A DNA stretch of 57,324 nucleotides from a virus (lineage: Duplodnaviria; Heunggongvirae; Uroviricota; Caudoviricetes), in IMG/VR virus record IMGVR_UViG_2778261526_000005; one strand, given 5' to 3'. Each line of letters opens with the position of its first letter. Position 1 is the stretch's first letter. The notes under the pieces were generated by a model, which was not told the origin of the DNA, did not search any database, and saw only the letters and a program-made list of their open reading frames with translations. The position numbers and the translations under genes were made by a program. Positions 22,631 through 48,971 of the stretch are shown here, one piece after another.

Positions 22631-23320
22631 TTAAATCTTTGTTCGCTGATAATCAGCAGAATCAATTAAATTATACATACCATTCATATCATGCTCATAA
22701 TGATATTCAGATTCATACGAATACCCCAATATACTCTCATAAGTCAAAACGACCCGAAAATGTTCAGGCACATCTCCAGCATTTATTTTATTTTTAGGAA
22801 GTTTAATTGCGCCATTGCTACTTCTAAAAAAATGCGAGCTATATTCCCCGATAGGAGGGTCAAAAGTTAAGCTTATATTTTTCGCTGTTTTACCATCACT
22901 AAATACCGACCAATTATACTCATACTGATCACCACTTTTAACTGACCATCCCAGATTCAACATATATAGATCAGGCTTCGTTTCTTTTTCTCTTTCCAGC
23001 CTTTCTGTCATGGCTTTGATTGATTCATTTTCTAATTGCTGTTTAGAAACGGAAACCATCTCTTTATATTGTTCGACTGAGTTTTTCAACTCAGTGGCTT
23101 GTAACTTTAACGCTTCAGTATTTTGCTGTAGTTCTTTTTGTTGCTGTAAATACCCAAGCACAAGCCAAAAAAAGGCCACTGGGGAAAATGCACCAGCAAG
23201 AAAATCTCCAAACTCATTCCACGACGTCATCTGGTTCAAATCAAGAACATGGATCGTAATACCTAAGCCAAAGAAATAAACGACACTAACTAAAACACCG
23301 CACCCAAAAATTCTCATCAT
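22631..23320 (-). CDS. Moron membrane protein (2 N-terminal TM helices, coiled coil, C-terminal domain); start at MMRIF
   Basis: AT-rich gene between Rz and HNH; GGAG RBS; own promoter-like and terminator-like elements. Confidence 0.5.
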   Translation of the reverse strand: MMRIFGCGVLVSVVYFFGLGITIHVLDLNQMTSWNEFGDFLAGAFSPVAFFWLVLGYLQQQKELQQNTEALKLQATELKNSVEQYKEMVSVSKQQLENESIKAMTERLEREKETKPDLYMLNLGWSVKSGDQYEYNWSVFSDGKTAKNISLTFDPPIGEYSSHFFRSSNGAIKLPKNKINAGDVPEHFRVVLTYESILGYSYESEYHYEHDMNGMYNLIDSADYQRTKI

Positions 23321-23341
23321 TCTCTCCCCATTTGGAGAAAA

Positions 23342-23371
23342 CATTTAACAACTGTCAAATAGTCAAGGTCA
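23342..23371 (-). promoter_or_regulatory. Candidate sigma70 promoter for the moron gene
   Basis: Minus strand TTGACC-N18-TTAAAT. Confidence 0.3.
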
Positions 23372-24293: not shown

Positions 24294-24620
24294 TTACTCC
24301 TTAGAGCCACCAAACTTATTACCGATTACTCTCATTGCAGCCCCACGAATAGCATCGACCCCGATCAGCCCAACGCCGCCACCAATGGCAACAGAAAGAG
24401 ATTTAGGCCATCCGACATACTCAAGAGCGGATGCAAAAGTCAGCGTCAGAGCACCACAGAGCAAAATCTCGAGCGTTTTTCGTTTCCAGCCACCACCACC
24501 GCCAAAATAGGCAATGCGCAAGCCAGCCATAACGATCGACATAATCACTGCGCCCAGCGGTGTGTCTCCACGCCACCAGCTCTGGACCAACTCCAGCCAG
24601 GTATTTGGGTTATGAGGCAT
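24294..24620 (-). CDS. Holin (class I, three TM helices)
   Basis: 108 aa, three hydrophobic helices, directly upstream of endolysin. Confidence 0.75.
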   Translation of the reverse strand: MPHNPNTWLELVQSWWRGDTPLGAVIMSIVMAGLRIAYFGGGGGWKRKTLEILLCGALTLTFASALEYVGWPKSLSVAIGGGVGLIGVDAIRGAAMRVIGNKFGGSKE

Positions 24621-24771
24621 TTGTAGTTATCTCTCACCTCGCTGATACAGCAGGTGCAAATTGAGGGAACATCATGTACCGCAAATCAGAAGCGGAAACA
24701 TCAAAGAAGCCGAACCGATGGAGAACTGCGGAATAGGCCAGGACCAACGAATCCCCAGCCACAGAAACGAC

Positions 24772-24794
24772 AAAACCCGCTCGACGGCGGGTTT
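24772..24794 (-). terminator. Intrinsic terminator upstream of holin (tR'-like)
   Basis: Stem aaacccgc/gcgggttt; minus strand followed by ttttgtcgtttctg. Confidence 0.4.
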
Positions 24795-24916
24795 AAGCTG
24801 TGTGGCGAAGTAACCACTCTTAACAGATTACAATGTTTTTTGCGGACCGCGCTAATGATTTCCTCTTTTTTTTGTTGTATTTTTCACACGGTTGCTAAAA
24901 TTATTTCGGATCGATA

Positions 24917-25858
24917 ATGAGTACAGAAAATAAGAATAAAACCAGGCGAGTGAGAGTTGGTTTTTTCACTGGTAATGGAAGCAAAAAAGATGGCACATCT
25001 GCTGCAAAACTAGCCTTTGAGCAAATGACCACAGCAGATACTGTAACTTTTCCAATAACTTACACAACAGACACCCCAAATCGAGGGTTAAAGTTAGTTA
25101 TTCTTCAAAAAGATACCACACTGCAATGTTACTTTGGTTACGTATCGTGGAGAAGGGAATGCCTACTACCGTTCATCGAGGATGCTACAGGTAGTGAGAG
25201 AACAATTCCTTTAAATGATAAAGATTCTGTAGTTGAAAGAACATATTTTATCTATTACTACGAAACGGACTTATTAGCTATGACCCTCAACCATATAGGG
25301 CCCAAAGTAAATGATCTGGCATTCATTTTGTATAACAAAACTGATTTAAAAAGCGTCACTTTTGAAGCCATTTGGAAACAAGAGAGCATGAAGGAACTGC
25401 TTGAGGACGGAAATATCCTACGTAGTTTCGATCTTATAGTTGCTGCTCCAAGAAACTTTAACAAAGCTAATTATAAGATTAAAAACCCTTTAGCTAATGA
25501 AATTATTGACATGGTTGTTGGTATGGGCGGGTCGCATCTAAGATTAAATATGCGAGGTCGGATTCGCCCGAAAAAACAAGGGTTTAACTATCTAAAAACT
25601 TCTGTCACCGATGCTATTAAGGAACTACTTGAACTTTTTCCAAAAGGTTCTGGAGGTCTAAAAATTAAAAAAATTGATGTAACAGAGCCATCCAATAGAA
25701 CGCCCAAAAGTCTACTTGACCAAGTATTGGTCAGTACAAAGACAATCATTGTCAAAAGCGGTTATCCATCCGATTCTGATATCAGAACGGCGATGATATC
25801 TGCTAAAATTGATAACGCGAACTATCTTGCACAGTATGAGCTCGCTAGCAGAGACTAA
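24917..25858 (+). CDS. Hypothetical 313-aa soluble protein, first gene of opposite-strand cassette
   Basis: AT-rich; plus strand inside minus-strand late operon; no recognised motif. Confidence 0.5.
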   Translation: MSTENKNKTRRVRVGFFTGNGSKKDGTSAAKLAFEQMTTADTVTFPITYTTDTPNRGLKLVILQKDTTLQCYFGYVSWRRECLLPFIEDATGSERTIPLNDKDSVVERTYFIYYYETDLLAMTLNHIGPKVNDLAFILYNKTDLKSVTFEAIWKQESMKELLEDGNILRSFDLIVAAPRNFNKANYKIKNPLANEIIDMVVGMGGSHLRLNMRGRIRPKKQGFNYLKTSVTDAIKELLELFPKGSGGLKIKKIDVTEPSNRTPKSLLDQVLVSTKTIIVKSGYPSDSDIRTAMISAKIDNANYLAQYELASRD

Positions 25859-25867
25859 TAACCAAGC

Positions 25868-26329
25868 ATGGAGGACACAATGAGAGAATTAGCCACTTTT
25901 CTCTGGAAATGCGTCCTCTGGATTCTGTTGACCTATGCAGCGACAAAACTGTTTAAACCGATGAAGCATGCTGACGTACTCACAACAGCGGGGGTGCTCT
26001 CGACTATATCAGGCATCCTGTTTGGTTTTGTTCTGGCTGCAATATCTATATTTAGTAGTGCAAACAGCGATAAGGAAGGAGCAATTAATGCCCTTAAGCA
26101 AAACAACGTGTTACCAACTCTGGTAAATAGATTACTTTCAACAGGGTTAACTCTCATCGTCGCATGTATATTTCCATTGATAGCGATGTTTCTACCTGAT
26201 GATGTTATTGTTGCGGGCAAACCTATTGATTTCCTGTTCATACTGTTAGGCTTATCCTCCCTTATAATTTCGCTATATACCTTCGGAAGGTGTTGGTTAG
26301 TGTTACGAAAAATCTTCCCCCACTTGTGA
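25868..26329 (+). CDS. Hypothetical 4-TM membrane protein, second gene of cassette (start likely MRELATF at 25880)
   Basis: Four hydrophobic helices; GGAGG RBS before the internal Met. Confidence 0.5.
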   Translation: MEDTMRELATFLWKCVLWILLTYAATKLFKPMKHADVLTTAGVLSTISGILFGFVLAAISIFSSANSDKEGAINALKQNNVLPTLVNRLLSTGLTLIVACIFPLIAMFLPDDVIVAGKPIDFLFILLGLSSLIISLYTFGRCWLVLRKIFPHL

Positions 26330-26364
26330 CAGGTTGGCCTCATATGGGGCCAACCTGTGCAACC

Positions 26365-26733
26365 CTAAGCGTCCATTTCAAGGTTAACATCCAACATTGA
26401 AAGGCAACCATCAATAAATCCTTCGGCTAGTTGTATTTCTATGCGTACCAATTTTTCATCCTTTCCACGCACCTTTGCAATCTTACGCTTGGATATTCTG
26501 TATAAATAATGTGCCACAAGCAGCGAGTGCTCATCTGGCTTTTTTTGCTTTAGACGAGCAAGACAACCTTCAATAATTAATGCATCACTATCTGAACAAG
26601 CCTGACGTGTTTTGCTTGTGTAGGGAAGAAGCCCCTTAAACCCAGCAGCTATAGGCGAATAGTCTACTCCAGAACTATCACTCGCCGCCCATGCTCCCCA
26701 ACGCTCCAGAACCATCTGAATATCACGCATCAA
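26365..26733 (-). CDS. Late-gene antiterminator Q-like protein
   Basis: Position between DUF968 gene and lysis module; ERWGAWAA...DYSP resembles Q-family proteins. Confidence 0.55.
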   Translation of the reverse strand: MMRDIQMVLERWGAWAASDSSGVDYSPIAAGFKGLLPYTSKTRQACSDSDALIIEGCLARLKQKKPDEHSLLVAHYLYRISKRKIAKVRGKDEKLVRIEIQLAEGFIDGCLSMLDVNLEMDA

Positions 26734-26747
26734 CTTTCTCCACCAAA

Positions 26748-27743
26748 TCAGGCCAACACCCCAATCGCCAGCGCGCGATCGATAAAACGAAATATCAGCT
26801 CCAGTTGGGAGCCATACTTCTCTTCAAATGCCACGGTATCCGCATGCAGCTCGTCGTGATGCTTTCTGCACAAAGGCAACACAAAGAGGTCATGCGCTTT
26901 TGTACCCATTCCACCCTGACCGTGACCTATCAGGTGGTGGGGATCATCAGCAGGCTTTCCACAACATGCACACGGCTGTGTCTTAACCCAGCGCGTGTAC
27001 TTTTCATTAACCCAGCGGCGGCGTTTTGGGCGTAACATAAAAGACTCCAGCGACTCCGGATCCACTTTCAGCGCCAGCACCTTTTTCGCTTTATCCTGGA
27101 TAATGCTGGTGGCAGGAACCGAAGGCACAAGGTCACTTTCCCGGGTGACCGCCTGCACAACAGGCTTCGGTAATCTCAGTGCCTTACGGGCTGCACTTTC
27201 CGGTAAGGCATCCGCCAGGTCATTACGAATCAGCCACCAGCACAGTTCCGGTATTGTCACAACGTGACTATCATCAAAACCGAGATCCCGACGCACAACA
27301 GACAACACCCAGCGGGCACAGTTATCCGTTGCCATTGATTCCAGCCGTTCCGTGAACTGATCGCGCAGCTGGTTATCGCAGTGCCAGCACAAACGGATTG
27401 CGCCCGGAGCGTGTCGCATTGTTGTCATGTTCTCGCTGTGCCAGTCGGAATGAGGCCACTGGCAGCCTTTTTCACGAAGTAACCAGCTTTCAAGACATTC
27501 CACGCCACCAGCACGACGGATCACTGCCTCATTGCGGAATACGGCCCGAACGGCAGGATCATCCGCCAGCGGTTGTGATGCCGCCGGAACGGCACCACTG
27601 GCGAAAGATGAATAACGTTCCGGCTCAGGCTCCAGCAGGACACGCCCCTGCATAAACAGGGGCATCAACTCTGAACCTGGCCTGAACAATACGATCCCCA
27701 TACGCGGGGCAATTTCAGGGGTCAGTAGTGCTCTCACGGTCAC
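26748..27743 (-). CDS. DUF968-like prophage protein with C-terminal HNH-like Cys/His cluster
   Basis: CACCGKPADDPHHLIGHG...CRKHHDELH; size about 330 aa. Confidence 0.5.
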   Translation of the reverse strand: MTVRALLTPEIAPRMGIVLFRPGSELMPLFMQGRVLLEPEPERYSSFASGAVPAASQPLADDPAVRAVFRNEAVIRRAGGVECLESWLLREKGCQWPHSDWHSENMTTMRHAPGAIRLCWHCDNQLRDQFTERLESMATDNCARWVLSVVRRDLGFDDSHVVTIPELCWWLIRNDLADALPESAARKALRLPKPVVQAVTRESDLVPSVPATSIIQDKAKKVLALKVDPESLESFMLRPKRRRWVNEKYTRWVKTQPCACCGKPADDPHHLIGHGQGGMGTKAHDLFVLPLCRKHHDELHADTVAFEEKYGSQLELIFRFIDRALAIGVLA

Positions 27744-37087: not shown

Positions 37088-38353
37088 ATGTTGATTGAGT
37101 TTACAGTACAAAACTATAAATCTATTTCAGAGAAACAAACACTGAGTTTAGTTGCATCAAAACTTAACGATTTGCCTAATAATCTGTTCAGTATTGATGA
37201 ACCTAAATCTCTTGAATTGCTTAAAAGTGCTGTGATTTATGGCCCTAATGCTGCCGGAAAATCAAACATTATTAACGCTATTACAACTATGGCTGAACTT
37301 ATTGTCCGGTCTGCTACAGGTTATAAAAGTGGTGATAAACTTGATATCACGCCTTTTAGACTAGACTCAAAGAAGATTAATCAACCATCTGAATTTGAAA
37401 TTAACTTTATTTCCGAAGGCATCAGATACCAGTATGGTTTTTCTGCAACAGAAGATTTTATTCACGACGAATGGTTATTTGCATTCCCCAAAGGCAGACC
37501 ACAAAAATGGTTTTTACGTCTATGGGATGAAGAAAAACAAACCCATGAATGGGAGTTGGGGCCATCGTTGACAGGAGAAAAACAAACATGGTTGAAATCA
37601 ACCAGGCCTAATGCGCTCTTTCTTTCTACAGCGGTACAATTAAACAGTGTACAACTAAAACCTGTATACGATTGGTTTTATTACAAAGTTAAATTTACTG
37701 AATTAACAGGTTGGGATAGTGATTACAGTGCAAAGCAATGCTTAAATGATAAGAAAGATGAGATTCTCAATTTTTTAAAAGCTGCCGATGTAGGTATTGA
37801 TGACATTCATGTAACAAAAGAAAAATTCAATCCCAATGCTCTTCCTGATGATATGCCTGCAGCCATCAAGGAACTAGTGATTAAGAATATGCAAGGCAAG
37901 GAAGAATATGTCATTAAAACACTTCATAATAATGAGGATGGAGAGCCAATTCCATTCGATTTAAAAGATGAATCGCATGGAACTAGAAAAATCTTTAGTT
38001 TCGCGGGTCCCTTATCACATTCACTCGAGACAGGAAACATCCTGTTTATTGATGAATTAAATGATAACTTACACCCCAAATTAGTTGAGTTTATTGTAGG
38101 TTTATTTCACGATAAAAATATCAATAAGAATGGTGCCCAGTTAATCTTTACAACTCATGAGACGTCTATTTTAAATCAAGATGTTTTCAGACGAGATCAG
38201 ATTTGGTTTGTAGAAAAAGACAATTCAAAGCAAACAAATCTTTTCCCACTTACGGATTTTAGTCCAAGAAAAGGAAGGGAGAATTTAGAAGCTTCTTATC
38301 TTGACGGTAGATATGGGGCTTTACCACTCATTGGGAAATGGGAGAGATATTAA
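37088..38353 (+). CDS. AAA/ABC-type ATPase (AbiLi-like, OLD-family ATPase module)
   Basis: Walker A GPNAAGKSN; Walker B ILFIDELNDNLHP. Confidence 0.65.
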   Translation: MLIEFTVQNYKSISEKQTLSLVASKLNDLPNNLFSIDEPKSLELLKSAVIYGPNAAGKSNIINAITTMAELIVRSATGYKSGDKLDITPFRLDSKKINQPSEFEINFISEGIRYQYGFSATEDFIHDEWLFAFPKGRPQKWFLRLWDEEKQTHEWELGPSLTGEKQTWLKSTRPNALFLSTAVQLNSVQLKPVYDWFYYKVKFTELTGWDSDYSAKQCLNDKKDEILNFLKAADVGIDDIHVTKEKFNPNALPDDMPAAIKELVIKNMQGKEEYVIKTLHNNEDGEPIPFDLKDESHGTRKIFSFAGPLSHSLETGNILFIDELNDNLHPKLVEFIVGLFHDKNINKNGAQLIFTTHETSILNQDVFRRDQIWFVEKDNSKQTNLFPLTDFSPRKGRENLEASYLDGRYGALPLIGKWERY

Positions 38354-39039
38354 TGGGAAGCGAAGATCTGTTCAAAAAAAGAAAGGCTCGGCGTAATAAT
38401 GAATTCAAACGAGTTAGTAAAGCACGAGCTCAAATGAAGAAAATTCTTATCGTCTGTGAGGGAGAGAAGACTGAGCCCGCATATTTTACAGATTTTATAA
38501 AACATTGCCGTATAAGCACGGCAAGCATAGTTGAGATTTCTGGAGAGTGCGGCTCAAGCCCTATGAATGTGGTATCTTGGGCAAAAGAAAAATATAATAC
38601 GGAAAAAAAAAGGAGCGACCCTTATGATAAGGTTTATTGTGTCTTTGATAGAGACGCTCACCCTAACTATGATGAAGCTCTTAGCAGGATTAATTCCTTA
38701 AATCCAAAAGGGATTTTTGTTGCTATAACTTCCATACCATGTTTCGAGTACTGGCTGATACTACATTTTGGATACACCCGAAAATCATTTTCACCTCAGA
38801 AAGGCAAAAGTGAAGGCGCACAAATGCTAGCTGAGTTAAAAAAATACATGCCAGATTATGAGAAAAAGGCATCAGGTGTATTTAATAAATTGCAAGATCG
38901 GCTCGATACGGCATTAATCAATGCTAAAAGAGTCGAAGATGCCGCCAAAAAAGACGGTTCGATAAATCCTTCAACTAAAGTTGGCGCTTTGATTACAGAT
39001 CTAATTAACATTCGTGATGACTTTGAAAATGAGAAGTAA
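38338..39039 (+). CDS. RloB-like (TOPRIM-like) protein, AbiLii-like
   Basis: ILIVCEGEKTEPAYF matches the RloB motif as recalled; overlaps the ATPase gene. Confidence 0.6.
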   Translation: MGEILMGSEDLFKKRKARRNNEFKRVSKARAQMKKILIVCEGEKTEPAYFTDFIKHCRISTASIVEISGECGSSPMNVVSWAKEKYNTEKKRSDPYDKVYCVFDRDAHPNYDEALSRINSLNPKGIFVAITSIPCFEYWLILHFGYTRKSFSPQKGKSEGAQMLAELKKYMPDYEKKASGVFNKLQDRLDTALINAKRVEDAAKKDGSINPSTKVGALITDLINIRDDFENEK

Positions 39040-39379: not shown

Positions 39380-40579
39380 GTGGCACGGACAACACGCCCC
39401 CTGACCAACACCGAAGTTCTGCGCGCGAAAGCGTTAGAGAAGGATCTAACGCTGCATGATGGCGATGGGCTTTTCCTGATAGTGAAAACTAGCGGCAAGA
39501 AACTCTGGCGCTTTCGCTATCAACGCCCAGCAACAAAACAGCGGACTATGATGGGACTTGGTGCTTTTCCTGCCCTTTCTCTTGCTGATGCCCGAGGGTT
39601 AAGAGCAGATTACCTTGCCCTATTAGCCAACGGAATCGACCCGCAAATTCAAGCTGAAGTTGCAGAGGAACAGCAGCAAATCGCTCTGGACAGTATTTTT
39701 TCGACGGTCGCCGCTAACTGGTTCCAGCTCAAAAGCAAAAGCGTTACCCATGATTACGCTAAAGATATATGGCGTTCACTGGAAAAAGACGTATTCCCCA
39801 CCATCGGGGAGATCCCTGTCCAGCAAATCAAAGCCCGAACACTGGTTGAAGCCCTTGAACCGATCAAAGCTCGTGGGGCGCTGGAGACGGTGCGCCGGTT
39901 GGTGCAGCGTGTTAACGAGATAATGATTTATGCCGTAAATACTGGTCTTATTGATGCCAATCCAGCATCAGGCATTGGAATGGCCTTTGAGAAGCCAAAA
40001 AAACAAAATATGCCTACGTTGCGCCCAGAAGAATTGCCTATGCTGATGCGTTCTCTCGTCATGTCAAATTTGTCTGTTCCGACTCGCTGCCTCATTGAGT
40101 GGCAACTCCTGACTCTAGTTCGTCCTTCTGAGGCTTCCGGTGCTAGGTGGGCTGAGCTCGATCTCGATGCAAAGCTCTGGACTATCCCAACTGAACGAAT
40201 GAAGGCTAAGCGGGAACACATAGTCCCTCTATCTCCTCAGGCATTAGAGATTCTTGATGTGATGAAGCTAATCAGTGCCCATCGTGAACATGTTTTCCCG
40301 AGTCGGAATGACCCAAAGCAACCAATGAATAGCCAGACGGCAAATGCTGCTTTAAAAAGGATTGGATTTGGTGGTAGATTGGTTGCTCATGGATTGCGTT
40401 CAATTGCCAGCACCGCATTAAATGAAGCGGGTTTTAATGCAGATGTAATTGAGGCTGCTCTTGCACATAGTGATAAAAATGAAGTGCGCAGAGCATATAA
40501 TCGTTCAACTTACCTTGAGCAACGAATAGGACTTATGAATTGGTGGGGCCAAAAAGTGTACGAGCGCAATCAATATTAG
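39380..40579 (+). CDS. Tyrosine integrase, P4/CP4-57 IntA-like (GTG start)
   Basis: Closely resembles E. coli IntA as recalled; AGGAG RBS. Confidence 0.9.
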   Translation: MARTTRPLTNTEVLRAKALEKDLTLHDGDGLFLIVKTSGKKLWRFRYQRPATKQRTMMGLGAFPALSLADARGLRADYLALLANGIDPQIQAEVAEEQQQIALDSIFSTVAANWFQLKSKSVTHDYAKDIWRSLEKDVFPTIGEIPVQQIKARTLVEALEPIKARGALETVRRLVQRVNEIMIYAVNTGLIDANPASGIGMAFEKPKKQNMPTLRPEELPMLMRSLVMSNLSVPTRCLIEWQLLTLVRPSEASGARWAELDLDAKLWTIPTERMKAKREHIVPLSPQALEILDVMKLISAHREHVFPSRNDPKQPMNSQTANAALKRIGFGGRLVAHGLRSIASTALNEAGFNADVIEAALAHSDKNEVRRAYNRSTYLEQRIGLMNWWGQKVYERNQY

Positions 40580-40608
40580 TTAACTTGTTATACATGGAGA
40601 TATAGTTC

Positions 40609-41067
40609 ATGGAGAATAATCTAGATAATTTATGTTATGAATTCTTTAGAGAGTTTTCACGTTATGAATATTGCCTTAAGGCATGTGGACTTCATCATAA
40701 AATAAAAGATGCTAAAGCGAACTGGGATGAGTATGCAAAGCAAGTTTCTGAAATCATAAATAACACAACTGATCCAGAGCTAATTGCTGCTATCACCTAC
40801 TTTAAAGAACACCCACCCAAAAAACAAATCATAGAAGATGACTCTTTAGTTTGGGATGATTCTTTACCACAAGAAAAAGATTTAGCAAAATTTCTTTTTT
40901 TGTTAATCCGCCGTGTAAGAAACAATCTTTTTCACGGAGGAAAATTTAACGGGAAATGGTTTGAACCTGAACGTAGTGAGGCGTTACTGCAACATGGCCT
41001 TGTTATTTTGAGGCATTGCGGCACAAGGCATAGTGAAGTAAGCAAAGCCTATTCTGGAATAGCCTGA
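40609..41067 (+). CDS. Hypothetical 152-aa protein in int-psu hotspot
   Basis: AT-rich ORF convergent with the helicase gene. Confidence 0.45.
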   Translation: MENNLDNLCYEFFREFSRYEYCLKACGLHHKIKDAKANWDEYAKQVSEIINNTTDPELIAAITYFKEHPPKKQIIEDDSLVWDDSLPQEKDLAKFLFLLIRRVRNNLFHGGKFNGKWFEPERSEALLQHGLVILRHCGTRHSEVSKAYSGIA

Positions 41068-41159
41068 GCGGTGTTATAAAAGAGAAGTTTTTGTTACTGG
41101 AAGAATGATAAAATTCAAAAACTTCTCTATTGATTGTTTAAAAAATCGTCTAAATAAGA

Positions 41160-43742
41160 CTATTGTACCCAAAAGTTACGAAATATATTATGTATTTCGT
41201 TTTGAACTAATTGTGGCAGTTCTTCCATGTCAACTTTATTGTCCTTAATCCAATTAATGCATTCTTCCTCATCTAAACTATCATTAGGAATAAGCTCTGA
41301 AATCATTACAGCAGCAGTTCTTGAAAAGCCAAGCCCTATTAGTGAAATCTGAGTTTTTAAACTTACACCCAGTTCTAAATAAACACCGATATCTTCAACA
41401 TCTTTTGCTAAGTCTGTGCGATCTATCGAAAGATAAAAGCTTTTTAATAAATCATTATAACATCCTAAAAGCCTTGGAGCTTGATAGCGAGCGATCTCTT
41501 CAACATCCTTCATAACCCCTCGTATTAAAGTCGCTTCTTTGAAAACAATATTTTTCTTTTTGTTATATCTTATTCTATCCGAGATCAATCTTGCTAGGGG
41601 ATAACCTTTCATCCACTTGGAAACTAACAAGGCCTGTACGTAAGCTCCTTTTGAATTATAACCTAGCTTCTTACTCAGAGTATCACTAATTCTAGAGAAT
41701 GCGGATACATATGAATCTAACGCATCATTACTACCAGGTTCAGAAAGCAGTAATCTCTCTACAGGTTTGTTTGTATCCCGCGAAAATCTATCCCAAAGGT
41801 TTTGCATTAAAAGCGGGCTTATACCAGGATGCCGCACAACCAATTCGTGTGGAAAAGTTAAAGAATCAAAAACATCAAATATTGCTTCATTTAAAACATC
41901 GATATTTTTTATATTGTACTTTTCCATGTAAGGATTATTATCCAAGCCATTATAAAAATAAAATGATGAACATAAATAACTAAATAGACTCTGGAGATTA
42001 GGATTCCGCTCAGACATACCAAAATGATGCTCTGAAAAAATATAGGAAACCAACTTATCCATGTCATGGGAAATAGCATCCGTGGCGCGAGTTATAAATA
42101 TATTTTTTTTGGTTTTTGGAGGCTCTCCATTCCAAATTTTTTCATTGTCGCTATCGATGCAGATGACATTACCTTGGAATTCTTTTCCCCAACGACCAGC
42201 TCTGCCAGCAAGATTCCAAAAATCCTCTTCTCGCATCGGGGTTGAATTACCCTTTTTAGGGCCTCTTATAAAAATATTTTTACAAGCCATGTTTACGCCC
42301 TCAACTAAAGTTGAGGTACAAATTAAAAAATCAATCTTACCTTTACTAAACAATCGTTCAATCTCGCCCTTTATTATTAAAGGCATGTTGCCATAATGAA
42401 AAGCGACTCTCTTTTTTAGAGTGCGATTTAATGCGAAATTTTTATGTATAATTGTCTCACTAAGCTCAACGAGAGCTAAAATTTCTTCATCCTCAGTCTC
42501 ATTTTCTATACTTGCAGATATTAGCTTGGAAGTAGATTCTGCTTCAGCGGCTCCATTTACGTAAACTACGTTACCAGAAGCCCCCTTACCTAAACAAAGA
42601 GCTACAAAAGGCAATCTTTTACTTTCAGGAGATGGTGCATTTTCTAAAGAAAAGTTTCCTAACTCGCGTTTTTCACCGTTTGCAAAATAATACATCAACC
42701 AATCTTTGGTCTTGCGTGGTTTTTGTTCTACCCATATTAAATTTTGATTAACTGTAACATAGTCACTTTTTATAGTTCTTTTGTTTTTTAATATTGGAGC
42801 ATCACTGAGCAATATTTCAGGATTTAAGGTGAAAGGACTTGCAAAGATAACTTTTGAATCAGGGTTATTTAGACAAGTCAGTTCAATTACATGTTGAAGA
42901 ATAACACCTCTTCCACCATCACCGATCTTGTGTGCTTCATCAACAACTAAGACGTCTATCTTTGGAATTTGTGAGAAATGATTGTAGAATAAATTTAATC
43001 TTTCCTGTGTAAATATGAAGACATTAGATTTTTCGCTCTGGTATACATTACTCAATGGTAGTGTCTGAATATTAACTATATTTGTTAAATTAGGATCCAA
43101 ACGTTTTTGCAACTCAGAATATACTTCTGAAATCAATGCCCTTGTTGGTACGATATAAATAACTAAGCAATTCTTATTTCTTTTTACAAACTGCTCCACC
43201 CAAGATTCCAGGATAAATGATTTTCCTACAGAGGTAGGAGCAGAGACACTAACCCATGAGTTTTCTTGTACCGCATCCCAAAACTCTGATTGAAACCTAT
43301 TAGCATAAATATGCTTATCAGCATCTATTTCAATTGTATATAGAATTTTTCTTTTAGTTAGTTCTAACTGAGCCTTTAAGGGTAATCTTTCTTCGAAATC
43401 AGGGTTAAGATACCCCCTATTTTCAGCAAGTTGTATTGCTGGATTATTAGATAATGAATCAAGAATTAATGCAGCACTATCTTTTCTTGCTTCACTTTTT
43501 TCATTCAATAAGCAATACTGTGCAATCCTTAAGGCTGCATCTTGGCATTTCTCATCACTTGAGAAAGCCAAAGAACTAGCACATGTTAAAAGATAGCCGA
43601 CATCCTCAGAACTAATCTGTGGGATTACATCTGATTTTAACTCTGGAAATTGATCTTTTATCGAGTTAGCGACTAATGCCTGATATTTTCTTAAGAATCC
43701 TTGATTCTTAATCAACCACCCAGATAAATCTCGCAACGACAT
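41160..43742 (-). CDS. Superfamily II helicase, Hachiman HamB-like
   Basis: Motif I SAPTSVGKSF, motif II VVDEAHKI, motif VI-like AGRAGRWG. Confidence 0.6.
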   Translation of the reverse strand: MSLRDLSGWLIKNQGFLRKYQALVANSIKDQFPELKSDVIPQISSEDVGYLLTCASSLAFSSDEKCQDAALRIAQYCLLNEKSEARKDSAALILDSLSNNPAIQLAENRGYLNPDFEERLPLKAQLELTKRKILYTIEIDADKHIYANRFQSEFWDAVQENSWVSVSAPTSVGKSFILESWVEQFVKRNKNCLVIYIVPTRALISEVYSELQKRLDPNLTNIVNIQTLPLSNVYQSEKSNVFIFTQERLNLFYNHFSQIPKIDVLVVDEAHKIGDGGRGVILQHVIELTCLNNPDSKVIFASPFTLNPEILLSDAPILKNKRTIKSDYVTVNQNLIWVEQKPRKTKDWLMYYFANGEKRELGNFSLENAPSPESKRLPFVALCLGKGASGNVVYVNGAAEAESTSKLISASIENETEDEEILALVELSETIIHKNFALNRTLKKRVAFHYGNMPLIIKGEIERLFSKGKIDFLICTSTLVEGVNMACKNIFIRGPKKGNSTPMREEDFWNLAGRAGRWGKEFQGNVICIDSDNEKIWNGEPPKTKKNIFITRATDAISHDMDKLVSYIFSEHHFGMSERNPNLQSLFSYLCSSFYFYNGLDNNPYMEKYNIKNIDVLNEAIFDVFDSLTFPHELVVRHPGISPLLMQNLWDRFSRDTNKPVERLLLSEPGSNDALDSYVSAFSRISDTLSKKLGYNSKGAYVQALLVSKWMKGYPLARLISDRIRYNKKKNIVFKEATLIRGVMKDVEEIARYQAPRLLGCYNDLLKSFYLSIDRTDLAKDVEDIGVYLELGVSLKTQISLIGLGFSRTAAVMISELIPNDSLDEEECINWIKDNKVDMEELPQLVQNEIHNIFRNFWVQ

Positions 43743-43743
43743 T

Positions 43744-44685
43744 TCAACTCTCCAATGCTTTAATTAAACTAGCCCTAAATGCTTTTACTGAAGGAAAAGG
43801 AAGAATAAAAACATGCATAGCAAAGCGATCAAGTTTTTTATTAACTATACCACCTTGCACACTAGTTGACCATTTCCCGACTTTAGTATTAATCAAAGCA
43901 ACTAGTTCACTGATATCAATTGAACTGGGCCCTTGTGGATAATCTTTAAGATCAAACCCAACTAAGCATATTCCTCTGTATTCCAATTTATTAAAATCCG
44001 GGCTATCAGGATCTAAGAATCTTTTCAACGCTTGTTCTAGTTCTATATCATCAACATTTAAGTGCGACTCCAGCAACTGCATATCACGTGTCTCAGCGCC
44101 TTCTATTCCCATAGAACTTTGAAGTAATGGAGCTATACTATCCATACACTCAGAAATACCTTTGCTCAGATTGGAATAGAGTTTAGACTCGCCCCAGTAT
44201 AAACATAATTTTTTATTATCTTTATCTACGCCTATATGTATTCCATCTGCACCATGGTAATGCATTTGAGAACTCGTTTTCAGGCTCATTTTGCAAATAA
44301 TTTGTGGAAATCTAAGGAATTGCTCTGCAAATAAAAAAAGAATAAATTCACCGCCTTCGCCACTATTTGCAAGCCTAGTAAATAATTTTTTTGCTTGATT
44401 TGCTAATTTTGTTATTTTCGCTGTTGATTGTGTTTCATTAAAATATTGCACTGCCTCATTGATTTTTTTCCTTGGAATAGCATAATCAACTACTTTATCG
44501 TTCAAGAATTGGATTAACGCGTCTACCCGAGGACGTCCATTGCCATCAAGATTAAGGCAATGAAAATGACAAGTTGCATTTGTATTTTCAATCAATGAAT
44601 TAACTTTAACTTCACTAAAATAACTATTTAGTGTTTGACCATCATCTCTAATCAGATTTTCAAGCGCGACATGCAGTGCATCCAT
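43744..44685 (-). CDS. HamA-like protein (possible PD-(D/E)xK nuclease)
   Basis: 313 aa immediately upstream of the helicase; D...ESK-type motif (GVDKD...WGESKL). Confidence 0.45.
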   Translation of the reverse strand: MDALHVALENLIRDDGQTLNSYFSEVKVNSLIENTNATCHFHCLNLDGNGRPRVDALIQFLNDKVVDYAIPRKKINEAVQYFNETQSTAKITKLANQAKKLFTRLANSGEGGEFILFLFAEQFLRFPQIICKMSLKTSSQMHYHGADGIHIGVDKDNKKLCLYWGESKLYSNLSKGISECMDSIAPLLQSSMGIEGAETRDMQLLESHLNVDDIELEQALKRFLDPDSPDFNKLEYRGICLVGFDLKDYPQGPSSIDISELVALINTKVGKWSTSVQGGIVNKKLDRFAMHVFILPFPSVKAFRASLIKALES

Positions 44686-45110
44686 GAGTAGGTCCTTGCA
44701 TATTTTATTTTCCTCATCATTTGCAATATATACTTATTTCAATAGCTTGCAACATTTTTACTCGACAATGATACTTACACCACACTCGCTGCTTAAAATC
44801 ATTGTTATCGCTTTAACGTGATAAACGATTCTTTCAATCAGGTACTCATTGAAAGTTAAAAGTTACTTTGACCATACACAGCGTGCGCTGCCCCGCCCGC
44901 CTGCCCGCTTCACTTAACAGACTGGTTTTCATGCACCCCGTAAATCGTCTCAGAAGCCACCACACAAGGGCTTTCGCGTCAAAAATGGCGCATGAGACTC
45001 ATGCGTTTTCATGCGCTATAGATATGCACTCATACGCCTTCAGGCCAGCCAGGGAAAAGGCGTAAAAAATCCCGGTACTGGACCGGGACTACGTGGGCGT
45101 ATTTTGCTAA

Positions 45111-45383
45111 TCAGACAGGAATTAGCTGACGGCTTGACAGCTTTGACGCGGAGCCATAGCGGTTGAGAGTTTGCTGTTGTTTTTCTGGCATTTGTTCTTT
45201 GTCTGATTCCTGTTCATTGCGCCAAGGCTTCATAATTATCGTATCCACGCTTTCCAGAGCGGTAAATGTGCAGGAACATTCCAGATTCTGGCACTGATAC
45301 CATGAGCGTTTAACCGATGGAGCTTCATAGGCGCTGGTTCTGGCGTGAGCGACCGTCCCACATTCAGGACACTTCAGGGCCAT
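45111..45383 (-). CDS. ogr: Ogr/Delta-family zinc-finger late activator
   Basis: CPECG...HARTS...YQCQNLECSCTF matches Ogr pattern. Confidence 0.7.
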   Translation of the reverse strand: MALKCPECGTVAHARTSAYEAPSVKRSWYQCQNLECSCTFTALESVDTIIMKPWRNEQESDKEQMPEKQQQTLNRYGSASKLSSRQLIPV

Positions 45384-45384
45384 A

Positions 45385-45939
45385 TCAGTACCCTCCTTTT
45401 TCATTAAGTCGGTTAAGGCGGGCCAGGAAAACTTTATGTTGTGCCGGGGTGAAACTGGTTGAAGCATCAGCGTACATTGATGCATCCACCGTTAATCCGG
45501 TTTCGTCGATAATGCTCTTGTATGCTGCTGAAATTACCGGAGTACGCACTTCCGTTTGTCGGGCTACAGCGGTTCGTAATATTTTCATTGCCGCCTCAAG
45601 CCCGTATGGAGCGCAAAGAAAAGGAGCCAGTGCGTCAGTGAGTGCATCACCATGCTCGCTCATGAAGTTTTCCGTTGCGCTTGTAACACAACTCTCCAGC
45701 ACAATCTGGTGAGCATAAAGACCATCCCGTGCAGCACAGTTAATCTGCCATTCGAGGACAGCAAGACGCTCACGAAGCTCCTCAAGCTGGCTGGCATATG
45801 CTGCCGGTTTTTCTTCAGTATTCAGCAGAGCCGCCAGACGAAGCTGGTAGGTACTTTGCGTATTACGTAGTGTCAGCCAGCTTTTTATCGCCGAGCGGTA
45901 ATCGTTGAGAGCTTCCTGAGTAATGGTTCCGGCATTCAT
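45385..45939 (-). CDS. psu: Polarity suppression protein Psu
   Basis: Recalled P4 Psu segments conserved (ALAP.L, FTPAQ). Confidence 0.7.
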   Translation of the reverse strand: MNAGTITQEALNDYRSAIKSWLTLRNTQSTYQLRLAALLNTEEKPAAYASQLEELRERLAVLEWQINCAARDGLYAHQIVLESCVTSATENFMSEHGDALTDALAPFLCAPYGLEAAMKILRTAVARQTEVRTPVISAAYKSIIDETGLTVDASMYADASTSFTPAQHKVFLARLNRLNEKGGY

Positions 45940-46721
45940 TTCTTCTCGCCCCCTTTAACCATGTCACGCTGTTTAAGCATCCGTGAACGCGCTGCAGGGC
46001 TGGGGGATTGTCTGGCATCCTGGATGGCTTTATCGTCCGCATAAATGCTGATCCCCGGCAGGGTAATATCATCCTTTGAAGATACGTTACAGGACAGTGC
46101 CGGAGTGGTGAGTTGCTCGCTGATAAATTGCTTCAGCACACTTTCGGGGTCGTTTACGGTATGAACTACACCGATAACAGCAGAAGCGCTTCGGCCCAGA
46201 GTCATTTTCAACAGTCCAAGGATCTGAATAAGTTTCTGGCCGTGTTCCTTCATAAACTCATTCCAGAGCCACACTGCATGAGTTTCAATCAGGCGATTAT
46301 GTTCGCTGATGTAGTGGTTTGCAGCATCCGCAGTTTTCCAGGGCAGGAATTCATTTTCTGCCACCTGAGCTGCCAGCAAATCTTCGAACTCATCCAGTGT
46401 TTCGCGTCCGAGGGCGATTTCTGCCCGCAGTTTTTTCATGCGTGGTGTCATATTTCCCTGATTCTCACGAAACAGGTTTCGCCATTCATCATTAAGCGCC
46501 TGCGTTTCCGTTTTTGTATCTTCCTGACGTTTACGGATAGTTTCAATCATTGCAGCAGCTTCAGTTTGTTTTCGCCGTTCTTCCTGCCAGACAGCTTTTG
46601 CTGCCTTAACTTTTTCCACCGCTTCGCGAATTTTCGGCGGGAGGGAGGATGTAATGTTTGCATCAGAGATCTGGTTAACAGTAGTCATGAATGCTCCGGT
46701 AGTGTTTTGTTGTCGTGTCAA
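45936..46721 (-). CDS. Putative Sid-like capsid size determination protein (start possibly 46688)
   Basis: Coiled-coil-rich protein first in the late operon. Confidence 0.4.
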   Translation of the reverse strand: MTRQQNTTGAFMTTVNQISDANITSSLPPKIREAVEKVKAAKAVWQEERRKQTEAAAMIETIRKRQEDTKTETQALNDEWRNLFRENQGNMTPRMKKLRAEIALGRETLDEFEDLLAAQVAENEFLPWKTADAANHYISEHNRLIETHAVWLWNEFMKEHGQKLIQILGLLKMTLGRSASAVIGVVHTVNDPESVLKQFISEQLTTPALSCNVSSKDDITLPGISIYADDKAIQDARQSPSPAARSRMLKQRDMVKGGEKK

Positions 46722-46760
46722 TTGTGCCGATGCCCATACAAGCGCACTACCGAGGGGGAT

Positions 46761-46778
46761 TGTGTCAGTGACAGAACA
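46761..46778. promoter_or_regulatory. TGT-N12-ACA element (Ogr/Delta-type activator site)
   Basis: tgt-gtcagtgacaga-aca read directly. Confidence 0.45.
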
Positions 46779-47601
46779 ATGACCTTGTTCTGGCTAGCCA
46801 GAGAAATGTGTCATGTCTGATCTTCAACTTTCCTTTAATAAATACTATTCACTACTGTTCACTTTGATAAAAAAATTGATAATACAGCTAGTTAAGAGGT
46901 GAAGGGTTGACAAGGCAGTATTCAGTGACTGTTCATGAGTGTTCATCGGAAGGTAGCGTGATTTATGATTTTTTTTCATCAAAAGTGAAATTTTTATTCC
47001 GAATGATTATTTCATTATTGTTCCTCACAACTATTCACCACTCTTCAGTAGTATTCAACAGATGATGAAATAGACGATTTTTCTTTGCCGGGAAATAACA
47101 TGATTCCCCCCTTTCCCTGGTGTTGCATTTCAATCTGATTTTTATAAAACTAGAACTGCTCGGTCTTTTATGAATTTATTTGGATATATTTTTAGGTTAA
47201 GAATGCGTGGTTATTGATTTTATGCGGTTCTAATTCTTCTGAGCTTGATGCAATTCATGAGTATATCCTGAAGTTAGGTTTGCAATGTAAAGCCATATGT
47301 AGAAATTGTGCATCCCTGCTGAATGGGTTGCGGTTTCAGTACCATTAAGTTCTATGACTTATGGGGTAGTAACCCCTGGATGAAAGTTAGTTCCTATTAA
47401 TGTCCCTGTATTTATAGTTCGCAGACATAATATCTATCATGCCATTTTATGTGGTTTGATATAGTTTTAAATTCCATTAAATCAATATGTGACGCTAAAT
47501 AAATAATGGGTGCGTAAGCGAGAAATATATACATAATAAGGAACTACCTGAATCCGGGGGGATTTATCCGGACTGATGAAGGAATTAAAGAGGGTAGATA
47601 A

Positions 47602-47862
47602 ATGCATGATATTTCTGTTTCTGCGCCAGCTCCGGCTGCGCCATTATTTCCTGTGCTGAACCAGCATGAGCGATTTTTACGTCTTCCCGAGGTGATGCAT
47701 TTATGCGGCTTGTCCCGCTCAACTATATACGACCTGATAAGCCGCGATGCTTTCCCGAAGCAGATCCCGCTTGGTGGTAAAAATGTTGCCTGGGCACAGT
47801 CAGAGGTAAGCGCATGGATGGCGGATCGTATAAGTGCCCGCGGACGGGGATGTGATGCATAA
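47602..47862 (+). CDS. alpA: AlpA-family HTH regulator
   Basis: [21 protein letters not shown] resembles AlpA. Confidence 0.6.
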
Positions 47863-48221
47863 TGATGCCTGAACGCATTAATCCCCATTTTTCTGGCTTG
47901 CATCCTGCAGTCATTTCCAGGTATAGTTTTTCCGCTGCCGCAAAATCGGCAGCCGGAATTGGCGTTCCGCGAAACTCAATGGCGACACCAGACGCGCCAA
48001 GCGTCTTTTTTTTCGTCGAAGCTCTGGCACACCCATTTTCCAGGCTGTGGTGTTTATGCGTACACCGTGGTTCTTTCGAGATAATGGCAGTCCGGGCGGG
48101 GCAGCCTTCGGGCTGGCCGGTATCCATTGAGGCCGGTTACGCCAACCCCGTTCGGGCTGCCACCAGTGAAATTGGCGTTTCCGGTGGTAGCAATAACCGC
48201 TACTCAATGGAGGCTGCCATC

Positions 48222-48413
48222 ATGGCTACAACCCTCACCCCGTTTTACCCGCAATATGTCTTTGTGCTTGCCGCAATCCGCCGTGCTGACACTCAACCCC
48301 GCATCTGTATGCTTCGCACCGTGGCCTGCGATGAGCGCTTTGCACGCCTTTCGCTGGTCCGTGATTATGTGCTCTCCCTTTCTGCACGGCTGCCTGCCGG
48401 GGAGGTGATGTGA
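48222..48413 (+). CDS. Hypothetical small protein
   Basis: GGAGG RBS; ATGA coupling to next gene. Confidence 0.3.
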
Positions 48414-48637
48414 TGAATCACGCCGCAATTTCTTATGACGATATTGTCCGCCTCAAGCATCTTCGTAACGTGGGGGAATTTGTCACCGGAATGGCTGTTC
48501 TTCAGGACTGCTATGAAAAACCTGCAGGTGCTCAATGTGAGCAACTGGTTTCCCTGATTTATCTGATGACAGAACAGCTTGATGGCGTGGTACAGCGTTG
48601 CCAGGATGACCTGATGAACAAGGAGGTGGTGCAATGA
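48413..48637 (+). CDS. Hypothetical small protein
   Basis: GGAGG RBS; coupled chain of small ORFs. Confidence 0.4.
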
Positions 48638-48957
48638 AATCACGCACTCTTCCCCTCTCACTTCGGCTGGCGTTATATCGCCGCGCGGTTGCCTGCGCCT
48701 GGCTGAGTATCTGCCATCAGCACAACCGCCACCTGCAGCTCACTCTGGATGAAATTGAAACCGCCATTGCCCGTGAGCTTGAAGGTTTTTATCTGCGACA
48801 GCACGGGCAAACAAAAGGCATGGAAATCGCCTGCGCCCTGCTTTCAGACCTGATGGAATCCGGTCCTCTAATGTCCTGCCCCGCACTCTCCCAGCTCGGA
48901 ATAGCCGTAATGGATGAGTTATGCGTCCGTCACATTATAAAGCCGGTTTTACACTGA
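48634..48957 (+). CDS. Hypothetical protein upstream of primase
   Basis: ATGA-coupled ORF. Confidence 0.4.
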
Positions 48958-48971
48958 GGGAGAACTGCATC

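Follow-up and report, generated by a model that had tools for sequence, protein, structure and literature searches.

A two-gene cassette between the antiterminator gene and the late promoter of a lambdoid Escherichia coli prophage probably encodes a highly diverged RexA/RexB-type exclusion system

What is encoded by two AT-rich genes that lie on the plus strand between the minus-strand genes for holin S and antiterminator Q, and how they came to be placed there, are the questions raised by a tailed-virus sequence of 57,324 nucleotides (IMG/VR record IMGVR_UViG_2778261526_000005; the whole stretch is referred to below as the window), which carries an e14/SfII-like lambdoid prophage of Escherichia coli. 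A first-pass annotation, made by a model from the letters alone, had described an opposite-strand two-gene cassette coding for a soluble protein of 313 residues and a membrane protein with four transmembrane segments, and had guessed at a two-gene abortive-infection (Abi) system. As judged from comparisons of sequence profiles, the cassette is probably a prophage cargo module encoding a highly diverged exclusion (Abi) system of the lambda RexA/RexB type. This is the best-supported function because its genes, here called A and B, appear to be remote homologues of rexA and rexB and have the same order and sizes; most likely it represents a RexAB-type system in a new genomic slot and not a new kind of system. 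The two genes are as follows.

Gene A, 24917-25858, plus strand: open reading frame (ORF) for a soluble protein of 313 residues without hydrophobic segments; probable outlying member of DUF6731, remotely homologous to RexA (putative cytoplasmic sensor or DNA-binding dimer)
Gene B, 25868-26329 (153 residues) or from 25880 (149 residues), plus strand: ORF for an inner-membrane protein with four transmembrane segments, PHROG 8552; probable remote RexB homologue and putative membrane effector

The two-gene layout and the soluble nature of A described earlier were confirmed by these ORFs, and the stronger AT bias relative to the flanks was likewise found, the guanine-plus-cytosine (GC) content being 0.377 in A and 0.413 in B, whereas most neighbouring genes lie at 0.52-0.59. 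For B, a start at Met5 (position 25880) is favoured by homologues of 149 residues and by the start annotated in RefSeq. The gap between A and B measures 9-21 base pairs (bp) in the window allele, and the two genes overlap in other alleles. Both are labelled 'hypothetical protein' in strain EC1722-1, which is 99.5% identical to the window across 36 kilobases (kb).

Scans of Pfam, NCBIfam and PADLOC v2 identified no family match for A or B. The earlier statement that neither protein could be assigned to a recognised family therefore held for these libraries, but A and B belong to PHROG 7651 (E 5e-146) and PHROG 8552 (E 1.7e-44), respectively, both of unknown function, and A probably falls in the DUF6731 superfamily, which the profile comparison below relates to RexA. 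A wide profile search for A was carried out over 1.84 billion representatives with a cut-off of E<=1e-3 and yielded 172 clusters at 50% identity, 123 of which, sharing 15-62% identity with A, were used for the wide A alignment. DUF6731 (PF20505) was matched by 111 of the 123 aligned relatives (best E 1.2e-20) and by 22 of 37 close A homologues; it is carried by homologues of 45-60% identity, and other E. coli alleles are labelled 'DUF6731 family protein' in RefSeq. Window A would thus belong to DUF6731 by transitivity only. No paper mentioning DUF6731 or PF20505 was found in a literature search.

The wide A alignment was compared with an alignment of 27 RexA sequences using hhalign, which gave a probability of 84% (P 7.6e-6) over 255 collinear columns spanning A 13-310 and RexA 2-273, that is, end to end. 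Reversal of either alignment gave P 0.14-0.17, and a cross control of the A family against RexB gave P 0.35. In RexA, a globular domain containing a seven-stranded sheet is split by an inserted dimerisation domain, itself made of a four-stranded sheet plus helices, after which the chain returns with a C-terminal helix (PMC11077077). The model of A has seven strands with two helices over residues 8-151, then four strands with three helices over 155-280 and finally a C-terminal helix (286-304), so that the modelled fold of A is RexA-like, with the same order of domains. RdgC, IML3 and CHL4 have been reported as structural relatives of RexA (PMC11077077). However, the scores of A with this RdgC/IML3-CHL4 fold of DNA-clamping dimers were much weaker than with RexA. 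RdgC, IML3 and CHL4, the last of which has CENP-N as its human counterpart, also differ from A in having no membrane partner and in serving other biology (recombination, kinetochore).

For gene B, the comparison with RexB was made after the family had been extended through the neighbours of distant A relatives. Six distant DUF6731 genes (approximately 19-31% identity) were each found to have a multi-transmembrane gene directly downstream (6/6), encoding 132-152 residues, with two of these partners ending at a contig edge; they share with B the motif SG.L.GF..A..S in the second transmembrane helix (TM2). The widened B alignment, to which these six partners had been added, was matched by hhalign to a RexB profile composed of four sequences from beside RexA homologues with a probability of 79% (P 1.7e-5, B 16-82 against RexB 20-85), and the match covers a conserved histidine in loop 1, TM2 and the central loop. 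Reversed controls gave P 0.22-0.28 and cross controls, including the B family against RexA, gave values of up to P 0.48. At profile level, remote homology is thus supported for A with RexA over the full length and suggested for B with RexB. The first-pass annotation had proposed profile hidden Markov model searches and defence-system predictors as checks: the library scans were empty, but the widened profiles link A to RexA and B to RexB, whereas PADLOC, used as the predictor, recognised neither protein.

The four transmembrane segments expected of B were located at residues 4-22, 39-57, 85-103 and 118-136 of the 149-residue form and fall at almost the same places as those of RexB (144 residues) at 8-26, 48-66, 84-102 and 116-134; for both proteins the positive-inside count favours an orientation with the N and C termini inside. 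An AlphaFold2 model of B shows four long helices in a bundle and a short helix in the central loop, with a predicted local distance difference test (pLDDT) score of 79, and the most conserved parts of the protein are TM2 and the central loop. Searches of PDB sequences with the A and B profiles returned no RexA and no RexB; the lone weak PDB match of the B profile, to a lipid phosphatase (E 7e-4), was regarded as a reflection of transmembrane composition. Using Foldseek against BFVD, the best match of A was A0A8S5S8L2 (Siphoviridae sp. ctylc9; E 6.6e-14, template modelling (TM) score 0.66, 14% identity) and that of B was A0A8S5S8H0 (ctylc9; E 0.013, TM score 0.61, 20% identity). The best matches of both proteins come from one uncultured virus, which suggests, at the level of models, that ctylc9 has an even more distant copy of the A-B pair. 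The second-best BFVD match of B was a Sbash protein of 165 residues (probability 1.0, TM score 0.53). Gene 31 of Sbash is a validated RexB-like effector of 165 residues (PMC6426596); the matched protein may be gp31, with which it agrees in length, the one feature compared.

Several observations weigh against a RexA/RexB assignment. The Pfam and PADLOC models for RexA and RexB match neither window A nor window B (lambda RexA, used as a positive control, matches at ~1e-98 in Pfam and ~1e-110 in PADLOC), and window A has no match to Pfam DUF6731 even at E<=5. Significance was reached for A and B only after both families had been widened: the narrow A alignment gave P 0.12 against the lambda RexA sequence and P 0.032 against the RexA family, the latter match falling at a topologically equivalent place in RexA, and the narrow B alignment showed no similarity to RexB (P 0.66). 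Even after widening, hhalign probabilities of 79-84% lie below the usual comfort level of 95%, and the match of B to RexB is short (62 columns), largely transmembrane and based on a RexB profile of only four sequences. The structural argument for A depends on a medium-confidence model, and lambda RexA and RexB were not among the BFVD matches of A or B in the Foldseek search. Unlike lambda rexAB, the cassette is not beside the repressor, and no rex-like genes were found in the repressor region of the window prophage. No strong promoter was detected upstream of A in a sigma-70 consensus scan. Finally, even for lambda it is a matter of debate whether exclusion is what Rex is 'truly' for (PMC11077077), and defence, toxicity, DNA binding and A-B interaction are all properties that we infer for the cassette.

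Pairing of the two genes was surveyed in 80 IMG/VR loci encoding a relative of A (43-100% identity). B directly follows A in 79 of the 80, the sole exception having a truncated A, and across 43 unique pairs the identity of A to its window counterpart rises and falls with that of B (r 0.98). A PF06530-type Q gene lies convergent just behind B in 75 of the 80 loci, with the late-promoter (pR') element described below upstream on the other strand in most. The same layout was found beside varied lysis and head modules in Yersinia, Pectobacterium and E. coli contigs. The pair also occurs in prophages of other types: in a P2-like Salmonella prophage beside the SopE effector and tail-fibre assembly genes (L095, 324-1744), directly after Mor in a Mu-like contig (L105, 1439-2492), within a siphovirus tail module, and beside the integrase of the 14.6-kb PM2-like (Vinavirales) Vibrio prophage 10N.286.54.F4_PE001 (L014, 1389-2896), where A and B are 34% and 31% identical to the window proteins. 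Among 5426 complete E. coli genomes, DNA queries with four alleles identified these in 73, 18, 25 and 11 genomes, chromosomal every time, and in total at least 127 of the 5426 (at least 2.3%) carry an allele.

To place the cassette within the late region of the prophage, the flanking features have to be considered; these are listed from left to right.

Holin S, 24294-24620, minus strand: PF05106, E 5.7e-25; first late (lysis) gene downstream of pR'/tR', outside the cassette
Late-promoter unit (putative pR'/tR'), 24772-24860, minus strand: conserved; back-to-back with the cassette, marking its left boundary
AT-rich region upstream of A, 24857-24916, plus strand: cassette-specific; expected site of the A promoter and ribosome-binding site
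GC-rich hairpin, 26325-26362, no strand: fills the gap between the B and Q stops; likely the 3' end of the cassette or a transcription barrier
Antiterminator Q, 26365-26733, minus strand: PF06530, E 7.7e-52; a distant relative of Q21; convergent with B and closing the cargo slot on the right with its 3' end

An element of 74 bp at 24772-24845 (minus strand), which occurs once in the window with 0 occurrences expected by chance, is conserved across SfII, cdtI, 434-type and Stx phages. Its first part is a conserved block of initially transcribed sequence (TGTTAAGAGTGGTTAC...), and an intrinsic terminator at 24794-24773, identified by a terminator scan, closes it. Directly upstream of the element, the palindrome GCGGTCCGC at 24842-24850 (minus strand) lies between -35/-10-like hexamers (TTAGCG-17-TGTAAT) of the putative pR' and is kept in every allele examined. 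Because of their position and of the lambda/82/21 paradigm, we read the palindrome, the hexamers and the 74-bp element as a putative Q-dependent late promoter with an early terminator (pR'/tR'), the palindrome being a candidate Q-binding element for the Q family of the window; comparison of window Q with Q21 structures gave E 0.002 (PDB 6p18), i.e. a distant relation. In the cargo-free phages PhiR49_2 and Stx2 phage 1720a-02, whose Q proteins share 77% identity with window Q, the element starts directly after the Q stop. Therefore, the cassette appears to have entered between Q and pR' and so to precede the late transcript; being convergent with Q and upstream of pR', it is, to judge from the arrangement of the genes, no part of that transcript. 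This corrects the earlier placement of the cassette inside the minus-strand late operon, which was wrong: it lies between the Q stop and the pR' unit that directly follows Q in cargo-free relatives. The further claim that this is the position where lambdoid phages carry stx did not hold either, as stx is downstream of pR' and the cassette upstream.

Comparison with relatives places the cargo boundaries at ~24857 and ~26371. From 26372 on, the Q-side flank is 95.8% identical in E. coli prophage L002 and 93.0% identical in phage cdtI, and the pR' element of cdtI is 90.6% identical to that of the window; despite these near-identical flanks, the cassette alleles of L002 and cdtI share only 45-47% protein identity with the window pair. 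The same slot holds other genes in related phages, namely SfII_50/SfII_49 in phage SfII (L010, 2786-4400), which match the PADLOC candidate system PDC-M53A/B (E 2e-32 and 3e-54), and the porin NmpC/Lc in 434-type phages (L009, 1951 onward). Both the porin (434, PA-2, DLP12) and SfII_50/49 are oriented opposite to Q and lie beside the same pR' element, but their proteins are unrelated to A and B. By this comparison, the junction of the Q stop and pR' is an opposite-strand cargo hotspot with at least three unrelated cargoes (the A-B pair, PDC-M53 and the NmpC porin). The cassette can be classed, on the same genomic grounds, as an exchangeable moron at this hotspot, because its GC content is deviant, it has a 3' hairpin or terminator, it is replaced or absent between flanks of 93-96% identity and the pair is mobile. 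Gene anatomy, strict A-B pairing with co-divergence, mobility between unrelated prophage types and allelic replacement at the hotspot can all be read from the aligned loci. The earlier guess of a two-gene Abi system gains support from the moron-like anatomy and the hotspot (PDC-M53 in SfII) as well as from the remote RexA/RexB homology.

The position outside the late transcript and the convergence with Q suggest that the cassette has its own weak promoter in the lysogen. One candidate for the A promoter is TTGTAT at 24875-24880, within the block GTAGTATTTTTCA that is kept among close alleles (15 alleles compared), and an alternative is TTGTTG-18-TAAAAT at 24872-24901; a GGA lies 6 nucleotides ahead of the ATG. 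At the other end of the cassette, only 35 bp separate the stops of B and Q, and these are occupied by the hairpin, which in the window has a perfect 13-bp GC-rich stem, an ATAT loop, a folding energy of -27.3 kcal/mol and a z score of -3.0, without a U-tract. Nearly all alleles have a hairpin at the same place, and in several of them it takes the form of a canonical bidirectional terminator. An Rfam scan of 24400-26800 identified no RNA family.

A mechanism can be proposed by analogy with lambda RexAB, Sbash gp30/gp31, CarolAnn gp44/gp43 and P. putida RexABpp, from which we infer expression in lysogeny, dimerisation of A, activation of B by A and membrane depolarisation. A and B would be co-expressed at a low level in the lysogen, driven by a promoter within the AT-rich 60 bp that precede A. 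As a cytoplasmic dimer with the RexA fold, A would bind DNA or a phage protein-DNA complex and so sense the infecting phage. Activated A would then trigger B, which may oligomerise into an inner-membrane channel or lesion, and the loss of membrane potential and ATP would stop growth and abort the infection. At induction, early read-through past Q would run antisense into the cassette and may damp its expression; a comparable opposite-strand logic has been reported for phi80 Tai (PMC11364771).

Other explanations have to be weighed against an exclusion system of the RexAB type. It is unlikely that A, with or without B, is a RexA-like developmental modulator that tunes the prophage's own lysis-lysogeny or late-gene switch, with exclusion secondary or absent; in this case the module would have shifted to its place beside Q/pR'. 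In lambda, RexA does bias the CI/Cro switch without the help of RexB, and non-specific DNA binding is known for RexA homologues (PMC11077077); moreover, in the 75 loci with a convergent Q the pair is placed precisely in the interval separating Q from the pR' element, where it stands back-to-back with the late promoter. However, the pair is also found in the P2-like, Mu-like, siphoviral tail-module and PM2-like prophages, which lack Q/pR', and close phage relatives have unrelated cargo (PDC-M53, NmpC porin) or nothing at the slot. The pair is therefore to be regarded as dispensable, exchangeable cargo, and the retention of B in 79 of 80 loci runs contrary to a function of A alone. Quite unlikely, in turn, is a reversed logic in which toxicity or antiviral action resides in soluble A, which membrane protein B merely keeps sequestered until infection releases it. 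Such an arrangement has been described for gp30/gp31 of mycobacteriophage Butters, which is counted as Rex-like (PMC12894663), and the anatomy of the cassette is compatible with either direction of control, but four of the five Rex-like systems described so far use the membrane protein as their effector. The conservation of B also peaks in TM2 and the central loop, as would be expected for a channel-forming effector, and in Sbash gp31 defence is lost when the central loop is mutated.

We consider it very unlikely that the cassette is cargo of a kind other than Abi, such as a superinfection exclusion (Sie) factor, a gene pair for envelope or membrane fitness (DNA entry, permeability, virulence) or some other benefit to the host. 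Small membrane proteins are common Sie factors, and the same slot holds the porin NmpC/Lc in 434/PA-2-type phages; against this, A and B appear to be specifically, if remotely, homologous to RexA and RexB, and a simple Sie protein would not be expected to have a conserved cytoplasmic partner. Next to no weight can be given to a Kiwa-like system with inverted gene order, a likeness raised in the first-pass annotation. KwaA and KwaB are also a small protein with four transmembrane segments and a soluble protein of ~310 residues, but the resemblance is one of sizes only: no PADLOC Kiwa model is matched, the order of KwaA (four transmembrane segments) followed by KwaB (DUF4868) is opposite to that of A and B, and the predicted fold of A is RexA-like. 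A doubtful extension of the RexAB-type reading, to which we attach only slight credence, is that DUF6731 and its partner with four transmembrane segments form a large unrecognised branch of Rex in which the RexA-like protein acts on or senses the Q/pR' switch, either its own or that of a superinfecting relative. The pair may then have settled back-to-back with the late promoter in lambdoid phages with a small PF06530-type Q. If this were true, exclusion would be coupled to late-gene antitermination as lambda RexA is coupled to the CI/Cro switch.

Among known systems, lambda RexA/RexB (PF15969/PF15968; PDB 8TWQ) has the same gene order and sizes as A/B at an identity of ~14-18%. The two differ in context, since lambda rexAB lies in the immunity region and is co-transcribed with cI from pRM, whereas the A-B pair has signals of its own and occupies the opposite strand in the interval from Q to pR'. 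Lambda rexB is also served by a second promoter, pLIT, and nothing comparable is evident in the A-B cassette. The Rex-like genes of Sbash and Butters are likewise not beside the repressor, and a cI-adjacent location does not define the wider Rex group because it is absent in these phages too. Sbash gp30/gp31 and gp44/gp43 of Gordonia phage CarolAnn are two-gene Rex-like Abi systems, the Sbash pair being displaced from the repressor. The central cytoplasmic loop, functionally important in Sbash gp31, is conserved in B; however, the hosts of Sbash and CarolAnn are Actinobacteria, gp30 is larger than A (372 residues), and hhalign with narrow alignments detected no sequence similarity of A to Sbash gp30 or of B to gp31 (Sbash, KP027201). 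RexABpp of P. putida prophage P1 (PP_5643/PP_5644; PMC12894663), compared by description only, comes from another host and lies near a CI-like repressor. Its membrane partner has no detectable RexB homology, whereas B has a weak RexB profile match.

A paper of 2026 counts only five described Rex-like systems and notes that the sensing of infection by RexA is still unexplained 70 years after Benzer's observation (PMC12894663). DUF6731, PHROG 7651 and PHROG 8552 contain the relatives of A and B and carry no assigned function; what is new here is that profile comparison links this uncharacterised Pfam family, and with it both PHROGs, to Rex. Should DUF6731 and its partner belong to Rex, a sizeable and diverse family (the 172 clusters at 50% identity) would be added, one that is overlooked by current defence finders, and the natural allelic series, with 45-100% identity in near-identical phage backgrounds, could be used for mapping specificity.

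Other cargo and defence genes were noted elsewhere in the window. A second AT-rich cargo gene (GC ~0.35) lies at 22631-23344 (minus strand), between the spanin and HNH/terminase genes, and encodes a protein of 237 residues with N-terminal transmembrane helices and a coiled coil, which belongs to PHROG 9267 (unknown function) and has no PADLOC match. It is located at the lysis/packaging junction like Tai (orf63) of phi80, but homology to Tai was rejected, tblastn having given no phi80 match. An AbiL system, located at 37088-39039 (plus strand) immediately beyond the prophage integrase and flanked by two integrase genes, comprises AbiLi (an AAA ATPase of 421 residues, E 4e-101) and AbiLii (RloB-like, 228 residues, E 5e-29). 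The prophage is adjoined by a P4-like satellite at 39380-51305, with an integrase (39380-40579), Psu (45385-45939) and an alpha-type primase (48921-51305). The integrase-psu hotspot of this satellite holds a Hachiman system, with HamB at 41160-43742 and HamA at 43744-44685 (minus strand). In EC1722-1, an nSTAND1 NTPase stands in place of Hachiman at the integrase-psu slot, and the similarity between the window and EC1722-1 stops at window position 40506.

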